Assembly: GCA_947626095.1 (NCBI GenBank)
Contig: CANQQV010000027.1
Span: forward strand, 1 to 15,522
Source: an uncultured Bacilli bacterium
GTDB lineage: Bacteria; Bacillota_I; Bacilli_A; RF39; UBA660
Direction of reading: 5' to 3'
Length of the DNA: 15,522 nucleotides
Of this stretch, positions 2,172-9,343 are shown piece by piece. The position numbers and the translations under genes were made by a program. The notes below the pieces were generated by a model. The model saw only the letters and a list, made by a program, of their open reading frames with translations. It was not told the origin of the DNA and did no database searches. Position 1 is the first letter of the stretch. Every line of letters begins with the position of its first letter.

Positions 2172-3398
2172 TTAATAGTTAAATGCATTATTTGGTTTTT
2201 CTTCTCCAAATAAGCTTAATTCATTTTCTTTTGCTTCATTATATATTTCCCATACGGTATCTAACCACAACTCATTACCATCACTTACCGGTGCATGAAT
2301 AGCTCCAACTTCTGCTAAAGTATTATACGAAACATCACTCAATGGTTTACCTATCATTCGATAATACTTAATAATTTCCGCACAAGTTTCAATAAAACCT
2401 TCCTCTATTGTATCAAACTTCCACCATGAGCCATTATTACGTAACCCTGCTGGATTATTCGCTGTTAAAAATAATTCACTCTTAAAATTACATTCTGTTC
2501 GACATATCGCATATAGTAAGCAACGATCAACTCCCATTACTTTAGCTATACTATTTATCTGAGCACAGTAATCAGTAGATGAATGATACTCATTATTATC
2601 ATACAAACTACCTATATCAATCCCAAATTGTTCTGGTAATTGTTTAATAGCTCTAATTGCATATAACAATATTTCTTCTTCCGAAGAGCCATATACTTCC
2701 TGCCCTTTACAAGTAACTCCCGTAATATGATAATTACTTAAAAAATCATCATCGGCAAAGTTATCAGTTAATTCAGCTAACTTATTAAAAGCTACATTCC
2801 TATTAATATGATAAATATCTGCATATTTATTAATTATTTCTCGTTCATACTTTAAATTATCTTCTGGCTCTGCCGTCGGTATCACTGTTTCATCAGTACT
2901 TACTATACCATCAAGCGGATCAGTCGGTTCATCAATAACAATACTTACACTTGTTGACGGTTCTTCTGGTGGTAAAGTTTCATTATTCCTTTCATTACCT
3001 GCTGCTTGTGTATTAAGATTCCAAATCATTCCTACTCCTAAAATAACTATCAAACTACCAATTACTACACGGTAACCAAACTTAATTTTAGGTGTTTCCT
3101 TTGTTTTATAACCATGATTATATTTATTACTACGATCTTTAGCCACAGCATAACGTTTAGTTGCTAAACCATTTTCAGGAACACTTTCTTCTTCCCTAGA
3201 TTTTACTCTTACTTCGCTTACTTTTTCTTCCCTTTTTTGTCCAAAATCATAATCAATAGCAATATTTGGATTTTTATGATATCTTCTTAAAGCTATAATT
3301 TCTTCTGCTGTTAAATTAAATATCTCCGAATTTTCAAAATCTACATACTTTCCTGTTCTAGTTATTTTACTTATATCTATTTTTGCTATATTTTTCAT
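2172..3398 (-). CDS. Membrane-anchored lysozyme-like/glucosaminidase-like (GH73-related) protein with a duplicated domain
   Basis: It has a ~110-aa charged N-terminus, one TM (aa ~111-128) and a Pro/Glu/Thr-rich linker. The C-terminal domain LLYAICRTECNFKSELFLTANNPAGL...KFDTIEEG resembles glucosaminidase domains (candidate catalytic E302, NNxxG motif). SD AGGTGG at 3403-3408. Confidence 0.65.
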   Translation of the reverse strand: MKNIAKIDISKITRTGKYVDFENSEIFNLTAEEIIALRRYHKNPNIAIDYDFGQKREEKVSEVRVKSREEESVPENGLATKRYAVAKDRSNKYNHGYKTKETPKIKFGYRVVIGSLIVILGVGMIWNLNTQAAGNERNNETLPPEEPSTSVSIVIDEPTDPLDGIVSTDETVIPTAEPEDNLKYEREIINKYADIYHINRNVAFNKLAELTDNFADDDFLSNYHITGVTCKGQEVYGSSEEEILLYAIRAIKQLPEQFGIDIGSLYDNNEYHSSTDYCAQINSIAKVMGVDRCLLYAICRTECNFKSELFLTANNPAGLRNNGSWWKFDTIEEGFIETCAEIIKYYRMIGKPLSDVSYNTLAEVGAIHAPVSDGNELWLDTVWEIYNEAKENELSLFGEEKPNNAFNY

Positions 3399-3432: not shown

Positions 3433-3460
3433 AAAATAAAAAGAAGAGTTAACTCTTCTT
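3433..3460 (-). terminator. Intrinsic terminator overlapping the HAD-GtrA stop codon
   Basis: The minus strand reads AAGAAGAG-TTAA-CTCTTCTT followed by TTTATTTT, a perfect palindrome at 3441-3460 with the TAA stop in the loop. Confidence 0.7.
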
Positions 3461-4474
3461 AAACACAAATAATTTACTTAACAAATAATTAAATATCATT
3501 ATTAAAATTTGCGTTACAATCGTCCATATCATTACCCATAAATCAGTATTTAATTTAAGTAATGTTACAAAGAACCACATAATAAACATTTCCATTAATA
3601 ATGTTAATATACGCGCTCCAAAGAATTGAAACATCTCTTTAATAATCTTTTTATTTTTACTTTTAAAAACATATATCCGATTAGTAACATAAGCAAATAA
3701 TACTGCTGCTGTCCAAGATATAACAATCGCCGACTGTAACTGTAAAGCATTATCCGCATTAAACACGGTAAATAAAAGTAGCCACTTAACACCAACACTA
3801 ACTATTGTGGTTAAACAACCAACAATTAAATAATTCCATAATTCTTCATTCTTATGATATATTCCCCATCCCCAACGCCAAAAACGAACAATAAAATTAG
3901 GTTTATACTCATAATAATTATATAGTTTATTTTTCTTTACTAAGATGCCTTCTTTAGCTTCTTTAATTAATGGTAAATCATTAATTGAATCCGTATACAT
4001 TTTACTAATTTTAGCTTTAGGATATTTCTTATAAAAAACTTTTACTTTTTCTTCCCCATGACAGTTATCACCTTTTATTTTACCGGTCTTTGGATCAATA
4101 TCTGTTGCAAATAAATCTTTTACTTTATATTTATCAGCAATTGGTTTTAACCAAAAATATCCCGAAGCCGAAATAATAATATCATTCTTATGATCTTTTT
4201 GTTCTGTCCAAAAATCTTTTAACTTATGTTCATGACCTTCCCAAAATTCTTCAACAAACTCTGAAGTATCAGGAAAATACTTTAAAAATGCAAAGATCTT
4301 ATTCTTCATATCTTTCTTAGTTCTTAACTTTAATAAATATAATATAACTGTTCCTAATGCTCCTAATAATGTCAAAAGAACTTTTGGTTTCTTCTTTATC
4401 GCAAATAAAACTAAATCTACTCCTGAATCCCCATCATAAATCGTTCCATCAAAATCATATAAATTGTACTTCAT
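3449..4474 (-). CDS. HAD-IB family phosphatase fused to a C-terminal GtrA-family membrane domain
   Basis: HAD motifs I (DFDGT), II (IISAS), III (NCHGEEK) and IV (YTDSINDLP) occur in aa 1-185. Aa ~210-341 form four hydrophobic segments with GtrA-type sequence (YLIVGCLTTIV, FAYVTNRIYVF, FNYLLSKLFVFKK). Confidence 0.88.
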   Translation of the reverse strand: MKYNLYDFDGTIYDGDSGVDLVLFAIKKKPKVLLTLLGALGTVILYLLKLRTKKDMKNKIFAFLKYFPDTSEFVEEFWEGHEHKLKDFWTEQKDHKNDIIISASGYFWLKPIADKYKVKDLFATDIDPKTGKIKGDNCHGEEKVKVFYKKYPKAKISKMYTDSINDLPLIKEAKEGILVKKNKLYNYYEYKPNFIVRFWRWGWGIYHKNEELWNYLIVGCLTTIVSVGVKWLLLFTVFNADNALQLQSAIVISWTAAVLFAYVTNRIYVFKSKNKKIIKEMFQFFGARILTLLMEMFIMWFFVTLLKLNTDLWVMIWTIVTQILIMIFNYLLSKLFVFKKS

Positions 4475-4480
4475 ATTGAA

Positions 4481-5557
4481 TCACTTCTTCTTTTTCACTT
4501 TATTCTTCTTTTCTTCATTATCTAAATGATGAAATAAAATATCTGTTCTTAAAACAATAAATAATAGTAAAAGCATTAAAGCAACATACAAGGCAATTGC
4601 TACTTTACTATCTCCTAATACATAGAAAATACTAATAGCTGCAAACACTATATTAATACCATATATTATTAAAACTGTTCCTCTAACCCCAAACTTCATC
4701 TTTAATAACTGATGATGAAAATGTTCTTTATCTGGTGTTGATATTTTCTCACCTTTCAATAATCTTCTAAAAATGGCAAAAGCCGTATCAAAAATTGGAA
4801 TTGAAAGAATTAAAATTGGAATAACTAAGGAAGTTAAAGTAGTAGCTTTAAATCCTAATAAAGCGATAACACTTATTGTAAAGCCTAAAAACAAACTACC
4901 AGTATCACCCATAAATATTTTAGCTGGATGAAAATTATGAATTAAAAAGCCTAAAGTTGAACCTAACATTATCAACGATAATATTATATCCAAACCTTGC
5001 ATTTTATTTAAAACAAAAGCAATTATCCCAATCGTTGTAAAATATATTGAACCAACACCTGCTGCTAAACCATCTAAACCATCAATTAAATTAATCGCAT
5101 TAGTCACACTAACAATAAAAATAATCGTTATTAGATAATTAAAAGGTGCTGGAAAATTAAAATTTAAACCAAAGAAACTAACATGATTTAAAACTATATT
5201 TCCATAAAAGACAACCACACAAGAAGCAACTAATTGAAAAAGTAACTTTGTACGTGCTCTAATCGGTTTTATATCATCAAATAAACCCGTTAAAACAATA
5301 ATAAAACCACCAATTAAAATTGATAACATCTGTATAGAAGTACGTGCAAATAACATATAACCTATTAAAAAAGCCCCAAATATTGCTAATCCTCCCATAC
5401 GTGGTGTTGGTACTGTATGAGAACTCCTTTCATTTGGAACATCTATTGCATTAGCATGAATAGCTGCCTTTTTTACAAAAGGAACTAATATAGCACTTGT
5501 TAAAAAAGTAATTAGAACAATAAAAAATATATTATGTCCATTAACTTCAAAATCCAT
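4481..5557 (-). CDS. tagO: UDP-GlcNAc:undecaprenyl-phosphate GlcNAc-1-phosphate transferase (TagO/WecA, MraY-like family)
   Basis: This polytopic membrane protein has PRMGGLAI, GLFDD, TNAINLIDGLDGLA, IFMGDTGS and the WecA/TagO HxHH motif (PDKEHFHH). The start was moved from 5575 to ATG 5557 (MDFEV..., 358 aa) because SD AGGTGG at 5564-5569 lies 6 nt upstream. Confidence 0.9.
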   Translation of the reverse strand: MDFEVNGHNIFFIVLITFLTSAILVPFVKKAAIHANAIDVPNERSSHTVPTPRMGGLAIFGAFLIGYMLFARTSIQMLSILIGGFIIVLTGLFDDIKPIRARTKLLFQLVASCVVVFYGNIVLNHVSFFGLNFNFPAPFNYLITIIFIVSVTNAINLIDGLDGLAAGVGSIYFTTIGIIAFVLNKMQGLDIILSLIMLGSTLGFLIHNFHPAKIFMGDTGSLFLGFTISVIALLGFKATTLTSLVIPILILSIPIFDTAFAIFRRLLKGEKISTPDKEHFHHQLLKMKFGVRGTVLIIYGINIVFAAISIFYVLGDSKVAIALYVALMLLLLFIVLRTDILFHHLDNEEKKNKVKKKK

Positions 5558-5622
5558 ATAAAACCACCTAAACATTATTATACGATATTTATTTTAAAAC
5601 ATAAATACTTCTTTATTTAACT

Positions 5623-5650
5623 AAAAAAGAGAAAAATTACTTTTTCTCTT
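5623..5650 (-). terminator. Intrinsic terminator overlapping the stop codon of the cohesin-like gene
   Basis: A perfect 10-bp stem (AAGAGAAAAA 5627-5636 / TTTTTCTCTT 5641-5650) has a 4-nt loop containing the TAA stop and is followed by a T-run on the minus strand. The stem is AT-rich and therefore weak. Confidence 0.6.
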
Positions 5651-7292
5651 CCTTATTAGCTTTCTTACGGCCTCTCGTTTTCTTTTTTTCTTCAACGACT
5701 TCTTCCGTAGGTTCATCTATTTTTTTAATTCTTCTTGTCTTTTCTTCTAAAACTTTATCCTCTTTTTCTAATCTTCTTAACTCTCTTTGTGATAATTGTG
5801 ATTTATCTACTTCTTTAGTTTCTTCTTTTACTTCCTCTTTAATATCTTTTACTTCTTTAGTATCTTTTACTTCTTTATTTTCTTTTACTTCTTCTATTGT
5901 TTCTTTAACTTTATTATCATTTTTGTCTTCTTTAATCTTTTTAGCTTTTTCTTTTAATTTGTCTGCTTCTTGATGCATCTTCATTAATTTAACTAATTCC
6001 ACTAATTTACTATTTTTCTCTCTAATCTTTGAATTATAAAGCATTAAAACAATTAATAAAATAATTGTTAAAAATGATATACCAACAAATATAAGTGCTA
6101 TTGAAAAATACAACTTTCCATTTTTATTATTACCTGCTTCATCTATTAAATATCTTTGGAAAGTCTCTTCTACAGTATCGTACTTATACCAACCAGTTTC
6201 TCCCGTTTTAGCATTCATACCATATACTAAAACAATATCACTTTCTTCTTCCCCCGTATAAGTAATAAATGTCATATCATTGATATTCATTTCCTTTTTC
6301 TCAGGATAATCATCTAATACACTAGGTGCATCTAAAGATATAAAAGTAAAACCTTCATTATTAATATATTTATATAGTTTATACGTTCCATCTTCATTAT
6401 AAATATATAAACTAATATCGCCGGCTTCATTCTTTAAAGCTAATAAAGTATAACCAGTTATATCACTATTTAATGCTGGTACAGTTTCTCCATCAATTAC
6501 TACTTCGCCCAAAGTATAATAAGCTGGAACTTCAATAGCGTCAACTTTACGTACAACAGCTAATTCTTCTCCGTCAACATTTACAATTACTGGATTTAAC
6601 TCTTTACGTGTAACTTCCACTACATAAGTCTTTTTATTACCTTTTTCGGCTGTTACTACTATTTCAAATCTATTTAATCCTTCAGTTAATTCTTTAGCTC
6701 CATCCCCAATAACTGTCGCATTACTATCATCTTTAGTTGCTGTAATGTTAATATTTTCTATTTCATTAGGTACTTCCAACGTATAATCTGTCGTATTCTT
6801 ATCAAAAGATGGTGTTAATTCATACCCTTCAACTACTAAACTCTTTAAATTAGCATTAGTACTATAACTCGCTTCAATCTCCGCTTGTGTACGCGCTTTT
6901 ATCGTAACTGAACCAACACTAACATTCATTGGTTTTAGTGAATCAAAGTCATATAAAGCATAATTTTTAACCGTTACTTTGGCATTACCACTTGCTACAG
7001 CTTTAAATTCATAAGTAACACTTTGATTATCTCCACCAACATAACCAGTAACAACTTCATTTCCACTTACTAAAACAAGTTTAGAATGGTCATAGTCAAT
7101 AGCATAATCCCAACCACCAACTTTACCAGCGCCGGTTCCAACACCATTAATTGTTACTGTAACTTTGACTTTATTTCCTACAACTACAGTACTGGCGTTT
7201 GCTTTAATTGAAATACCTGCAGCAGCATTAACATAAAGAATTCCAAAAAGACTAATTACCAAACTGAAAATTAAATATTTTATTTTTTTCAT
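5637..7292 (-). CDS. Surface protein: signal peptide, cohesin-like domain, cadherin-like beta-sandwich, C-terminal TM and long charged cytoplasmic tail
   Basis: The signal peptide ends in ...YVNA/A. Aa ~25-132 show a cohesin-like pattern (TVVVGNKVKVTVTI, IDYDHSKLVLVS, TYEFKAVASGNAKVTV). Aa ~144-230 are cadherin-like (NANLKSL...PSFDKNTTDYTLEV...IVVTAEKGNKKTYVVEVTR). A TM (LYFSIALIFVGISFLTIILLIVLML) precedes a ~130-aa K/E-rich tail. Confidence 0.75.
   Translation of the reverse strand: MKKIKYLIFSLVISLFGILYVNAAAGISIKANASTVVVGNKVKVTVTINGVGTGAGKVGGWDYAIDYDHSKLVLVSGNEVVTGYVGGDNQSVTYEFKAVASGNAKVTVKNYALYDFDSLKPMNVSVGSVTIKARTQAEIEASYSTNANLKSLVVEGYELTPSFDKNTTDYTLEVPNEIENINITATKDDSNATVIGDGAKELTEGLNRFEIVVTAEKGNKKTYVVEVTRKELNPVIVNVDGEELAVVRKVDAIEVPAYYTLGEVVIDGETVPALNSDITGYTLLALKNEAGDISLYIYNEDGTYKLYKYINNEGFTFISLDAPSVLDDYPEKKEMNINDMTFITYTGEEESDIVLVYGMNAKTGETGWYKYDTVEETFQRYLIDEAGNNKNGKLYFSIALIFVGISFLTIILLIVLMLYNSKIREKNSKLVELVKLMKMHQEADKLKEKAKKIKEDKNDNKVKETIEEVKENKEVKDTKEVKDIKEEVKEETKEVDKSQLSQRELRRLEKEDKVLEEKTRRIKKIDEPTEEVVEEKKKTRGRKKANKEEKK
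5824..5898 (-). repeat. Imperfect in-frame tandem repeat (18/21 bp) encoding xxEVK(D/E) units
   Basis: Four units start with TCTTTTACTTC at 5824, 5845, 5863 and 5881. They encode IEEVKE-NKEVKD-TKEVKD-IKEEVKE in the cytoplasmic tail. Confidence 0.7.
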
Positions 7293-7310
7293 TTCTATCC
7301 CTTTCCTTCT

Positions 7311-9299
7311 CTACAATGATGAGTAACCTAAGATATGTTTTTGTATTTTTAATAAATCTAAAGAGTTAAGTTTTCCATCATAACTAACATCTGCCGCATA
7401 ATAATCAGCGCCACTTAAAGTATTATATTTTAAAATATGTTTTTGAACTATTAGTAAATCTAATGAATTTATTTTACCATCACTATTTATATCTCCACTA
7501 ATAGCAACAGTAAAATTCTTTTCTTCCGTTGTTCCACTAATTTTAATCTTATCACCTGTAATTAAACTACCACTATTCTTCTTATTGCCTTCAGCATCAT
7601 AAACAATAGCATTTCCACCATTCTTAGTAATTGAATTAACTAATGTACTAACTTGCGTATTAGGTGATATACCATATACGATATCTTTATTAGCTTTAAC
7701 ATCGACTTTATTAATTACATCTTCTACTGATACAACTTCATTAGCATTAATTTTCTTAATTGTTAAATTATAGCTTTTAGTACTACCATCTTCTGCTCTT
7801 ACTACAATAGTTGTGTTGATAACATCATCAACAAAAGTTAAAGTTCCTGTTCCACTTATCACACTTGAAGAACTATTAGCAGGTAAGGCACTAAGTGAAA
7901 TATAATTTTCTTCTGTTGGATAATTAATATTGTATTCCACAACATCTGGATCAAAACCTGTAATCGTTGTTCCATTAATTGTTATATCAATTAAACTATT
8001 TACTGAACTTTTATTTAATGGTTGAGCAACTGGACCCATATTATTAAATACTGGAATTGTAAATACAAATGCTGAATCTAAAGCCCCAGATTTATCGTAT
8101 ACACTTTTAGCATCTTTACCTTCACTAGCTGGCGCATAAACATTTGTCATATATTGATTAGTATACATCTTATTATCACTAGCACGATAACTAGAAATAT
8201 TAAATTTTTGATAATAAATTGTATCTTGACCTATTTTTACATAACGTGAAGCAATAAAGTTAGCTCCTCCAGTAATCGCTTTCTCTTCTGTGTCCCATGG
8301 ACGACCATAAGAAGTACTTTCAAAGAATCCTGCTGCATAAGCAACTGCTCTTGTTGTTGGAGACATCCCATTAGCTTTATAAGCTCCTATATTATAGAAA
8401 TTATAATAACCATCTAATGATTTACCATCATATTTTATTCCTGTTTTAGTTGTATAAATACCAGATGAAGGACCATAACCGGCCGTATTATTTCCTTCTT
8501 GTTTACTACGTGCTACTAAGTCTACAACATTTATCCCCTCAGTTGAAGCTGCACTTTTAAAATAACTTAAATATTGTTTTAAATTACCATTACCAACTAA
8601 ATATTCAATTGTTGAATCATTAGCTAAATCTTTATTAGCATCAGAATCTAAAAATTGAAAGATTAAGTTTTCAAATAAACTATTACGTGGATCCATAAAT
8701 GATGCAATAACTGAAGATTTAATATAATACCAACATGTTCCTTTTGTAGGACATTCATTTGGTGTTGTCTTTAACCAATAATTTTGATTAGTTGTTTGTA
8801 AAGAGCAATAGTTTTCTTCGCCTTTACTTGCTTCTTCTAATGTCATCCCAACTCTATCAGCATTAAACACCCAACTAGGATGAATACTATGTAAATAATA
8901 TAAATAAGGACAATAACTATCATCAAAACCTTTACCAACTAAAGTACTACAATATGATTGATAAGATTCTACCCCTGGAGCATCAGAAGTTAATGTATTA
9001 TTATCAACATTTATAACATAACTTTTAGAAATATAACCAGTTTGATTACCATCATATTTAACACTATACATATTATTAGATGCTGAACCAGTTATAATAA
9101 CCCTACTACCATAAGCAATTTGTGTTACTTCACCCTTACTAGTACTAGGAACATCATGAACTACCAAAGCATCAGCTGTAATGATTCCATTAAATGGATA
9201 TACCTCAGCTGCCTTAGTTGTTTCAACCCTTTGTGTAATTAATAAGAAAGCACTTAATATAAAAACAAATAAACAAAATAATTTAACTAATTTATTCAT
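7311..9299 (-). CDS. Secreted peptidoglycan hydrolase: SH3b, GH73/LytD-like N-acetylglucosaminidase, cadherin-like domain and C-terminal type I dockerin
   Basis: An N-terminal signal peptide is followed by an SH3b-like region at aa ~37-96 (GIITADALVV...GYISKSYV). Glucosaminidase motifs include LVARSKQEG (E268), YYNFYNIGA, GQDTIYYQKFN and QYMTN. A cadherin-like region reads GFDPDVVEY...VRAEDGSTKSY. The dockerin (aa 602-662) has two Ca-binding loops, DINSDGKINSLD and DVSYDGKLNSLD. Confidence 0.88.
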   Translation of the reverse strand: MNKLVKLFCLFVFILSAFLLITQRVETTKAAEVYPFNGIITADALVVHDVPSTSKGEVTQIAYGSRVIITGSASNNMYSVKYDGNQTGYISKSYVINVDNNTLTSDAPGVESYQSYCSTLVGKGFDDSYCPYLYYLHSIHPSWVFNADRVGMTLEEASKGEENYCSLQTTNQNYWLKTTPNECPTKGTCWYYIKSSVIASFMDPRNSLFENLIFQFLDSDANKDLANDSTIEYLVGNGNLKQYLSYFKSAASTEGINVVDLVARSKQEGNNTAGYGPSSGIYTTKTGIKYDGKSLDGYYNFYNIGAYKANGMSPTTRAVAYAAGFFESTSYGRPWDTEEKAITGGANFIASRYVKIGQDTIYYQKFNISSYRASDNKMYTNQYMTNVYAPASEGKDAKSVYDKSGALDSAFVFTIPVFNNMGPVAQPLNKSSVNSLIDITINGTTITGFDPDVVEYNINYPTEENYISLSALPANSSSSVISGTGTLTFVDDVINTTIVVRAEDGSTKSYNLTIKKINANEVVSVEDVINKVDVKANKDIVYGISPNTQVSTLVNSITKNGGNAIVYDAEGNKKNSGSLITGDKIKISGTTEEKNFTVAISGDINSDGKINSLDLLIVQKHILKYNTLSGADYYAADVSYDGKLNSLDLLKIQKHILGYSSL

Positions 9300-9334: not shown

Positions 9335-9343
9335 ATTATAGCA
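9335..9343 (-). promoter_or_regulatory. Extended -10 (TGcTATAAT) for the autolysin-cohesin operon
   Basis: The minus strand reads TGCTATAAT at 9343-9335, ~35 nt upstream of ATG 9299. SD AAGGAAGTGA precedes the start. The -35 is poor. Confidence 0.55.

Follow-up and report, generated by a model that had tools for sequence, protein, structure and literature searches.

Cohesins and dockerins are the connector domains of plant-fibre enzyme complexes. The confinement of wall hydrolases in Gram-positive cells is under active study, and the routes recognised so far are wall-binding repeats, transmembrane anchors and dedicated membrane partners. Here we describe a gene pair in which the two subjects appear to meet.

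Among the closest described systems is 'Ruminococcus bicirculans', in which one dockerin and one cohesin are associated with GH73 (Wegmann et al. 2014, as cited in PMC4611034). As in our locus, one cohesin and one dockerin are tied to GH73 in a non-cellulolytic gut Firmicute; the citing sentence is silent on architecture, gene pairing, anchor type, distribution and binding. The X82 cohesin-dockerin complexes of Clostridium perfringens (NagJ, NanJ; 2vo8, 2w1n, 2jh2, 2ozn; PMC12997984) also lie outside cellulosomes, and their single cohesins are the nearest folds to that of gene 2. Those cohesins occur as fusions with secreted glycoside hydrolases acting on host glycans, whereas gene 2 has a shorter cohesin on a non-catalytic transmembrane protein, with a peptidoglycan hydrolase as its putative cargo. 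Single-cohesin anchoring scaffoldins with a C-terminal transmembrane helix have been described (PMC11557425, PMC13463774), and these, like OlpA/SdbA/ScaE-type anchors, display one cohesin at the envelope to hold dockerin proteins. They serve many polysaccharide-degrading enzymes or scaffoldins, whereas gene 2 appears to serve one wall hydrolase, gene for gene, and carries an additional domain, D3.

In Staphylococcus aureus, SagB and SpdC form a peptidoglycan release complex in which the SagB catalytic residue is E155 (bioRxiv 10.1101/2020.05.21.109470). SagB shares its GH73 subtype with gene 1 and is held by a non-catalytic membrane partner, and by analogy our pair may work like SagB-SpdC. SagB carries a membrane anchor of its own, with a polytopic CAAX-protease homologue, SpdC, as partner, whereas the pair combines a soluble enzyme with a single-pass partner through a predicted cohesin-dockerin link. 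Neither a transmembrane-anchored GH73 nor a polytopic CAAX-family partner was found in it, and there was no CAAX family match. A full-text literature search returned no description of the pair or the anchor, though supplementary cohesin and dockerin tables may list members; PMC2914790 and PMC2810439 yielded nothing relevant to the pair.

Organisation of the locus

The window is a stretch of 15,522 nucleotides from an uncultured Bacilli bacterium. The gene pair sits in it between LCP and TagO-like genes and comprises the following features.

7311-9299, minus strand: gene 1, a predicted secreted SH3-GH73-cadherin-like-X-dockerin peptidoglycan glucosaminidase of 662 aa (P0002; profile and PDB matches)
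5637-7292, minus strand: gene 2, a single-pass membrane anchor of 551 aa with cohesin-cadherin-like-D3-TM-tail architecture (P0001; profile and hydrophobicity)
9335-9343, minus strand: candidate extended -10 of the two-gene unit, TGCTATAAT, its function suggested by position
5622-5655, minus strand: A/U-rich terminator-like hairpin over the gene 2 stop codon (folding z -2.9)

The original prediction described a two-gene unit with an 18-nt spacer, its own extended -10 and a terminator after gene 2. Both reading frames lie where it placed them, and the spacer is at 7293-7310 with a purine-rich ribosome-binding site inside it. The promoter claim stands in part: the sequence is present, and the window holds 5 copies of its pattern where chance would give 3.33 (52/200 shuffles reach 5), so that position alone favours this candidate. 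The terminator is similarly divided. U's follow the A/U-rich hairpin, whose folding energy of -15.2 kcal/mol is equalled by 2/200 shuffles, and a scan for terminators of the G+C-stem type listed nothing 3' of gene 2. The gene 1/gene 2 junction is spanned without differences by contigs from public DNA runs, which may include the source sample. Elsewhere in the window, the reading frame at 2172-3398 had no family or PDB match.

The gene 1 enzyme

Gene 1 encodes a protein with a single N-terminal signal-like hydrophobic stretch and no other, followed by five regions, all on the minus strand.

9000-9200, minus strand: SH3b domain, aa 34-100 (Pfam SH3_3, aa 45-95)
8031-8999, minus strand: GH73 glucosaminidase region, Atl/SagB type, aa 101-423 (6fxo and 6u0o matches)
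7752-7997, minus strand: cadherin-like beta-sandwich of the enzyme, aa 435-516 (PF12733 and our own profile)
7506-7733, minus strand: X module ahead of the dockerin, aa 523-598 (76 aa), with no Pfam family, conserved in 120 homologues
7314-7505, minus strand: type I-like dockerin, aa 599-662 (PF00404 and PDB dockerin matches)

The SH3_3 match scores 28 bits against a cut-off of 27. For the catalytic region, PDB matches include the Atl glucosaminidase 6fxo (E 8.7e-15) and the SagB-type chains 6u0o (E 3.3e-8) and 6fxp; a SagB model matches it weakly, and a search of gene 1 with Pfam PF01832 gave no match. The catalytic Glu268 is encoded at 8496-8498 and a QYMT motif lies at aa 382-385, the YxT motif being a mark of the Atl/SagB-type GH73 family. 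E268, Y383 and M384 are invariant across 68 homologues, and the catalytic Glu is retained in 8/8 distant partner enzymes. Homology, catalytic Glu and motif thus assign gene 1 to the Atl/SagB-type GH73 enzymes, and its predicted glucosaminidase activity would cut peptidoglycan at GlcNAc-MurNAc.

The cadherin-like match (aa 437-515) scores 19.6 bits with Pfam, below the cut-off, and E 9e-9 with our own profile. The X module, which the original prediction did not mention, is missing from many Lachnospiraceae and f5/f22 partner enzymes. The dockerin is matched by Dockerin_1 at aa 602-657 (E 1.4e-14, 54.5 bits against a cut-off of 22.9) and consists of two near-identical Ca-loop/helix repeats with conserved acidic ligand positions; among 120 homologues, D603, D607, D614 and D648 are present in 100%, and D637 and D641 in 95-98%. 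The predicted order of an SH3b-GH73 glucosaminidase ending in a dockerin is borne out by the SH3_3, 6fxo and PF00404 matches.

The gene 2 anchor

Gene 2 was proposed to display a short cohesin-like domain on a cadherin-like stalk, with a transmembrane helix and a long tail, and each of these elements was recovered.

6888-7223, minus strand: shortened cohesin, aa 24-135, about 112 aa (fold and profile matches)
6597-6863, minus strand: cadherin-like beta-sandwich of the anchor, aa 144-232 (PF12733 at aa 149-230, E 6.5e-12)
6138-6596, minus strand: D3, the family-defining all-beta domain of two repeats of about 76 aa, aa 233-385 (153 aa; predicted model)
6045-6101, minus strand: transmembrane helix, aa 398-416 (Kyte-Doolittle mean 3.15)
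5640-6038, minus strand: K/E-rich predicted cytoplasmic tail, aa 419-551, 133 aa, length not conserved

Profile and fold identify the N-terminal domain as a shortened cohesin. Its best fold match is cohesin 2vo8 (Z 11.6, rmsd 2.7, 109 aligned), 14 more cohesin entries follow at Z 9.3-11.5, and the top Foldseek match is 2w1n (E 2.9e-7). With the family profile, the 17 best matches among PDB sequences are all cohesin-containing chains, matched over the N-terminal half (best E 1.4e-7), and a language-model search likewise favours cohesin. The Pfam Cohesin model gives 19.1 bits, under its 24.1 cut-off, which some orthologues clear (L075, L079, G483, G484). The domain is about 30 aa shorter than the canonical nine-strand domain of about 140 aa. 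The DSSP string, taken apart from the coordinates, hints at one central strand fewer, and the canonical four-strand dockerin-binding sheet may well be short of a strand in this domain. Conservation of the beta-3 surface residue D62/E falls from 90% in close homologues to 34% in distant ones. The short cohesin and this uneven conservation weigh against the tether model.

D3, between the cadherin-like domain and the membrane, was not mentioned in the original prediction. It is modelled at pLDDT 94.9, its halves align to each other at 97.8% probability, and its family comprises 1907 clusters at 50% identity. Searches found no Pfam match at E<=0.1, no Foldseek match at E<=0.001, and no chain among 48,161 at Z>=5 (best 4.3), negatives that do not demonstrate a new fold. 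Each half loosely resembles small SH3/Tudor barrels or propeller blades. An Atlas search returned unnamed clusters only, at 0.84, and the D3 alignments are too divergent for pattern scanning.

Two functional proposals for these parts fared less well. The tail was suggested to direct localisation from inside the cell. This is unsupported because tail length ranges from 5 to 248 aa in 164 relatives (median 34.5), despite a juxtamembrane N-S-K-x-R-K-K-N-x-K-L motif conserved among close homologues. The cadherin-like domains were suggested to act as a ruler holding the hydrolase at a set height. This too lacks support, since long Ser/Thr/Pro/Asn-rich linkers separate the cohesin from the cadherin-like domain in many anchors, and the cadherin-like domain is missing from 3/70 dockerin-bearing enzymes and from eight anchors encoded behind LCP genes.

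Conservation of the gene pair

The pairing of the two genes is conserved across three families of Bacilli and in Lachnospiraceae. Enzyme and anchor are adjacent in 22/22 close loci with upstream DNA. Among the D3 loci of 60 family genomes they adjoin in 42/45, and two of the other three have a dockerin gene directly downstream. In the Lachnospiraceae family that includes genome G484, the pair is adjacent in 22/58 anchor-bearing genomes, and 30/58 have no dockerin detected at E<=1e-4. Within the best 80 of 470 relatives, 66/69 dockerin-bearing enzyme loci with room adjoin a cohesin anchor, compared with 0/8 dockerin-less enzyme loci that have a D3-TM anchor. Dockerin is absent from 10/17 anchor-less family genomes versus 1/43 anchor-bearing ones, a contrast among kin that admits no valid p-value. 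At locus L181 of the cultured Bovifimicola ammoniilytica, the pair carries the sole dockerin found.

We also considered whether the pair tracks the presence of peptidoglycan. This was rejected: murG is present in 60/60 family genomes and the anchor is missing from 17/60, so the pair is not required for a wall.

Cohesin and dockerin also travel together when the remaining modules change. Across 20 loci, the 17 cohesin-bearing anchors have 7 Atl-type GH73, 9 PF01832-type and 1 GH25 enzymes upstream, all ending in a dockerin, and the cohesin-less anchors (3/3) have no dockerin neighbour. D3 anchors are paired with M6 peptidases in 2 loci. At L166 it is the anchor that is swapped, a GH73-dockerin enzyme being paired with a divergent cohesin protein that ends in a sortase-like signal. 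Two loci retain the pair with the dockerin relocated into the GH73 domain.

Proposed mechanism and alternatives

These patterns suggest that the cell probably keeps a wall hydrolase on its own membrane by means of a cohesin-dockerin connector, in an arrangement common in gut Firmicutes. Gene 1 would be exported as a soluble GH73 N-acetylglucosaminidase, and gene 2 would span the membrane and expose D3, the cadherin-like domain and the shortened cohesin on the outside. The Ca-loaded dockerin would bind the cohesin, as the folds and gene pairing suggest, so that a flexible leash retains the hydrolase on the inner side of the cell's own wall. There, by analogy with SagB-SpdC and Atl, it could trim or release glycan strands in growth or cell separation. 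The dockerin would replace the wall-binding repeats or transmembrane helix of other autolysins; among 6 dockerin-less enzymes scanned, 4 have 3-4 SH3 domains, 1 has 4 PG_binding_1 domains and 1 has a weak choline-binding repeat. We favour this surface complex of one enzyme and one anchor, with moderate confidence, over the alternatives below. A strict tether is incomplete as an account, as the anchor often persists without a dockerin.

That persistence gives some weight to a different reading, in which the anchor, bound to the membrane, chiefly regulates the hydrolase or serves as its co-factor, in an SpdC-like role that D3 or the cadherin-like domain would mediate, and the cohesin-dockerin contact is optional. 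A dockerin-free GH73 lies beside a cohesin-bearing anchor in 6 loci (L088, L218-L221, L229), four of these enzymes having a single SH3 domain. The GH73-anchor pair thus outlives the dockerin at at least three separate places in the D3 tree (FastTree supports only), and D3 and the transmembrane helix are the constant parts of the anchor family. However, three unrelated catalytic modules and the M6 peptidases use one anchor with the dockerin as their sole common part, and the partner gene is lost where the anchor has no cohesin. We consider regulation as the main role rather unlikely. A second, dockerin-independent role of the anchor through D3 or the cadherin-like domain is nevertheless probable, because some lineages have lost the dockerin and kept the anchor.

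The complex might instead form and act outward on foreign peptidoglycan, in scavenging or attack (the 'lyticome' idea). Anchors similar to gene 2 carry C1, S8 and M6 proteases and other likely foraging enzymes, and dockerin-bearing lysozymes have been interpreted as competition factors (PMC6487960, PMC6403190). Yet a short membrane-anchored stalk would be expected to lie under or within the wall, gene 1 is the only GH73 found in the source genome, and the pair lies between the LCP and TagO-like genes, an LCP gene being within 3 kb in 27/80 related loci. We regard action on foreign walls as improbable.

It is equally improbable that the cohesin-like beta-sandwich has a structural or glycan-binding role and leaves this dockerin unbound, that the genes adjoin because both serve the wall, and that the dockerin binds another cohesin or nothing: GH2 Ig-like domains do come within 1 Z of the best cohesin match (but over only about 90 residues), the source genome has further cohesin-like domains, and 8 cohesin-D3-TM anchors without a cadherin-like domain persist behind LCP genes with no GH73 nearby, several of them in genomes without a detected dockerin, but adjacency in Bacilli is near-perfect, cohesin and partner are lost together, cargo swaps retain the dockerin, and the pair in G484 has both the sole dockerin found and the sole Pfam cohesin match.

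If the tether reading is true, a cohesin-dockerin leash would be a further route of confinement, in abundant gut lineages in which wall biology has hardly been studied. It would offer a concrete job for the lone dockerin-cohesin pairs of non-cellulolytic genomes, and it cautions that dockerin counts in gut MAGs should not be equated with fibre degradation. A far broader view is speculative and, taken whole, unlikely. Gene 2 would be the type member of a widespread, undescribed membrane-scaffold family (cohesin-cadherin-like-D3-TM) that in uncultured Bacilli, Erysipelotrichales-like families and Lachnospiraceae positions and regulates the main wall glucosaminidase. D3 would link hydrolysis to LCP-dependent wall-polymer attachment, and one-enzyme housekeeping would be the commonest, perhaps older, use of cohesin and dockerin and the source of multi-enzyme cellulosomes.

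Other dockerins and cohesins in the source genome

Pfam matches in the source genome (91% complete) number 2 for dockerin and 2 for cohesin, each single; the multi-cohesin scaffoldin and many dockerin enzymes of a cellulosome, amylosome or mucinolysome were not found in it. The second dockerin is on an M60 peptidase. Other dockerin proteins had been suggested to share the gene 2 anchor, which is unsupported because this sole other dockerin protein adjoins a transmembrane gene of its own. The product of that neighbourhood, a 334-aa transmembrane protein beside the M60 peptidase (contig C1), was considered as a cohesin carrier and set aside when searches gave no support. The additional cohesin-like domains are in a 2440-aa protein (C12) and a 620-aa protein (C2; hhalign 61%).

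Domain organization of the gene pair

The locus comprises two genes:

7311-9299, minus strand: enzyme, 662 aa, with SH3, GH73, cadherin-like, X and dockerin modules
5637-7292, minus strand: anchor, 551 aa, with cohesin, cadherin-like and D3 domains, a transmembrane (TM) helix and a tail

ORF and domain scans of the window recovered both reading frames, the 18-nt spacer and every domain named in the original prediction. They also revealed two overlooked modules: X (aa 523-598), which precedes the dockerin, and D3 (aa 233-385), a membrane-proximal domain of 153 aa. The extended -10 is present but its occurrence is not above chance, and the hairpin proposed as terminator after gene 2 is weak, A/U-rich (z -2.9) and absent from a standard terminator scan.

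Residues 101-423 of the enzyme align to the Atl glucosaminidase 6fxo (E 8.7e-15) and to SagB-type chains. Glu268 coincides with the conserved Glu of the catalytic helix, is invariant among 68 homologues, and is retained in 8/8 distant partners. The dockerin has two near-identical repeats with conserved Asp ligands; repeat symmetry of this kind is a usual trait of dual-mode type I dockerins. A phmmer search of the source genome, G000 (1.6 Mb, approximately 28% G+C, 91% complete), gave no second GH73.

The anchor carries a shortened cohesin

An AlphaFold model of the anchor ectodomain, built from an alignment of 93 sequences, has a mean pLDDT of 91.9 but a pTM of 0.53, so the domains are confidently predicted but their mutual placement is not. 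Structural comparison of the N-terminal domain ranks C. perfringens cohesins highest, namely 2vo8 (Z 11.6, rmsd 2.7, 109 residues aligned) and 2w1n (Z 11.5); many cellulosomal cohesins come next (Z 9.3-10.7, over 103-109 residues). GH2 Ig-like domains score equally with these (Z 10.4-10.7), over only about 90 residues. Foldseek ranked 2w1n first, the 17 best PDB matches to a 32-sequence profile are cohesin chains, and an Atlas search gave cohesin clusters at 0.88, which serves as a lead only. Profile and fold comparison thus agree with the cohesin-like assignment proposed originally, and we take the domain to be a cohesin homologue some 30 aa shorter, probably by one central strand. The N-terminal domain is apparently even shorter in anchors of families f5 and f22, which we take to be Erysipelotrichales-like; 10 of these 11 anchors match a broadened cohesin profile (E <= 5e-6) and one, L071, does not. 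D3 is a tandem pair of approximately 76-aa beta units (modelled at pLDDT 94.9). Its profile spans 1907 clusters at 50% identity, and Pfam, Foldseek and a wide structure comparison gave it no family assignment.

The gene pair is conserved in Bacilli

Close relatives of the enzyme are mostly from uncultured Bacilli; one, at 45% identity, is from a Candidatus Coprovivens sp. (L112), a taxon placed by NCBI in Bacilli incertae sedis. Of 24 genomes from the same genus, 23 encode a full anchor orthologue, compared with 1 of 16 at greater distance. A GH73-cadherin-like-X-dockerin gene lies directly upstream wherever upstream DNA is available (22 of 22 loci). In an even draw of 60 genomes from the source organism's family (f1, presumably RF39), 43 encode D3 and 49 a dockerin; at 42/45 D3 loci, a dockerin encoded upstream in the same orientation ends 650-810 nt away. 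Two of the three exceptions, from a different anchor clade, are directly followed by an M6 peptidase-dockerin gene; at the third (genome G483), a three-SH3 GH73 without a dockerin adjoins an intact cohesin anchor.

A phylum-level draw, in which all listed genomes came from the same class, yielded D3 in 25 of 399 scored genomes from four families. At the 20 loci fetched, the N-terminal domain is present in 17 anchors, each of them located after a wall hydrolase that ends in a dockerin (7 Atl-type GH73, 9 PF01832-type, 1 GH25). The three anchors without this domain have no such neighbour (0/3). Two of their genomes lack a dockerin; in the third, a second, complete anchor adjoins a GH73 whose dockerin is in another reading frame. 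Dockerins were absent from 5/5 D3-less family genomes tested from this draw. Since the genomes are kin, the Bacilli counts are non-independent events. At L068:664-4530, PF01832 glucosaminidase copies lie in tandem; the first has no SH3 or dockerin matches, and the anchor lies next to the second copy only.

Pairing and dockerin loss beyond Bacilli

Among the best 80 of 470 relatives kept from an enzyme-alignment scan, three loci had no room downstream. A cohesin anchor is the next gene for 66 of the 69 dockerin-bearing enzymes with room (D3 visible in 65), leaving three unpaired. None of the eight dockerin-less enzymes with room has a D3-TM anchor; four are followed by a cohesin-cadherin-like gene without a TM helix and four by nothing of the kind. 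Dockerin-less enzymes often have additional wall-binding modules (six scanned). At one unpaired locus (L166, Oscillospiraceae), there is a divergent cohesin gene with a terminal sortase-like signal. This arrangement may be similar to that of R. bicirculans, where one dockerin and one cohesin are linked to a GH73 enzyme (as cited in PMC4611034).

Data against strict tethering come from the family of Bovifimicola ammoniilytica (G484; presumably Lachnospiraceae). Of 101 genomes, 58 contain D3 and 34 contain a dockerin (both 28, D3 only 30, dockerin only 6, neither 37), and the two are adjacent in 22. Twenty loci, picked for the absence of an obvious dockerin neighbour, comprise eight cohesin-D3-TM anchors without a cadherin-like domain, behind LCP genes; five dockerin-less GH73-anchor pairs; two pairs with the dockerin inside GH73; and five other contexts. 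The LCP-context anchors (L211-L216, L224, L225) directly follow LCP, with glf or glycosyltransferase-like genes upstream and glmS-like genes often nearby. At L222:237-2462 and L223:2093-4210, the dockerin, preceded by an X-like stretch, is inserted where other Lachnospiraceae enzymes have long low-complexity inserts. A quick, midpoint-rooted D3 tree groups the LCP-context anchors in a single clade (0.99) together with one other anchor. The dockerin-less pairs are spread over three positions in this tree, at one of which they are sister to dockerin-bearing pairs (0.95). This pattern would fit repeated dockerin loss, although the deep branches are weak.

A probable tethered wall hydrolase

The gene pair, with its domains, catalytic residue, swaps and losses, is real and widespread, and is a new variant of non-cellulosomal cohesin-dockerin use. 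Judged from sequence, cohesin-dockerin binding within the pair is likely, and tethering of an own-wall hydrolase is the reading we consider probable. The enzyme would be exported, the anchor ectodomain would lie outside the membrane, docking would be Ca-dependent, and the hydrolase would act close to the membrane, on the wall of the cell that makes it. SagB-SpdC (bioRxiv 10.1101/2020.05.21.109470) is a functional analogue. The D3-only genomes, LCP-context anchors and dockerin-less pairs indicate that the cohesin can be retained where no ligand is detected, and that the dockerin by itself does not account for the pairing. A mainly regulatory anchor-enzyme partnership is the likeliest of the alternatives, if an unlikely one. 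We consider it quite improbable that anchor and enzyme do not bind directly. A foreign substrate for the tethered enzyme, in keeping with the interpretation of dockerin-bearing wall hydrolases as competition factors in PMC6487960 and PMC6403190, we likewise hold to be a slim prospect. In the literature, single cohesins with TM helices are classed as anchoring scaffoldins (PMC11557425, PMC13463774) and the C. perfringens X82 system is described (PMC12997984). The passages covered in PMC4081043 and PMC12484212 add nothing specific, and no published description of the pair appeared in the mostly non-subscription full-text literature searched.

Stalk, tail and other anchors

The cadherin-like domains had been proposed to act as a ruler. 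Family-wide this does not hold: the linkers from cohesin to cadherin-like domain are often long and low-complexity, and the cadherin-like domain may be missing from either partner. Within the clade of the source organism, this linker is predicted to form a short helix, so a stiffer stalk may be possible there. A localising tail is not borne out by lengths of 5-248 aa across 164 relatives. Nor does sharing of the anchor by other dockerin proteins find support, as the one other Pfam dockerin in G000 belongs to an M60 peptidase, next to which lies a separate TM gene. This 1753-aa peptidase (L102, C1:45919-51180) has a weak N-terminal dockerin and is directly followed by a 334-aa signal-domain-linker-TM protein (C1:44918-45922), with a similar layout in genome G182 (L100); a search for a cohesin in the 334-aa protein gave no support.

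The one-cargo, one-anchor layout recurs in related genomes, where the anchors are D3-less and the cargo is papain-like, a subtilase or of metallo-beta-lactamase/choline-binding type; it is thus a general display module in the lineage. At L091-L094, L097 and L098, dockerin-ended cargos (papain-like, subtilase, metallo-beta-lactamase with choline-binding repeats, and unassigned) directly precede D3-less cadherin-like anchors, 5/6 with a detected cohesin-like domain. G000 also encodes a 2440-aa protein (L103, C12:36098-43420) with an N-terminal cohesin (36.9 bits), a hydrophobic helix, GLUG-like repeats and Asp/Asn loops that are dockerin-like by eye; by eye it resembles a ZmpB/M26-type protein. 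A paralogous 620-aa anchor (L104, C2:80496-82358) has a weak cohesin-like domain (hhalign 61%), three cadherin-like domains, a TM helix, no adjoining dockerin gene, and relatives throughout the genus. A 319-aa protein (C5:30434-31393) of apparent CHAP-linker-cadherin-like-TM layout (CHAP by eye) looks like a wall hydrolase that carries the same type of stalk and anchor within its own chain. Genomes G470, G463 and G446 have 10-19 dockerin matches in 1.1-1.7 Mb.

Genomic neighbourhood

The window corresponds to contig C27 of G000. Pfam-type annotation places the pair within a cell-envelope gene cluster, with sulfatase/LtaS-like, metallophosphoesterase and LCP genes on one flank and TagO/MraY-family GT4 and HAD-GtrA genes on the other. 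Further features are:

2172-3398, minus strand: protein of 408 aa, with a TM-like stretch in its interior and a C-terminus that by eye looks lysozyme-like; zero matches in Pfam, NCBIfam and PDB searches
3449-4474, minus strand: fusion of HAD hydrolase and GtrA-like membrane domain, adjoining the TagO-like gene
5557-5582, minus strand: start region of the GT4 gene, with TATAAT 1 nt before the ORF finder's ATG and AGGTGG before Met7

The HAD-GtrA fusion probably has a role in lipid-carrier-linked wall-polymer synthesis. The positions of TATAAT and AGGTGG make 5557 the probable true start of the GT4 gene and suggest that this gene has a promoter of its own. Public DNA runs matching the window are rabbit-gut and gut metagenomes from two studies, the best of which may be the source sample.
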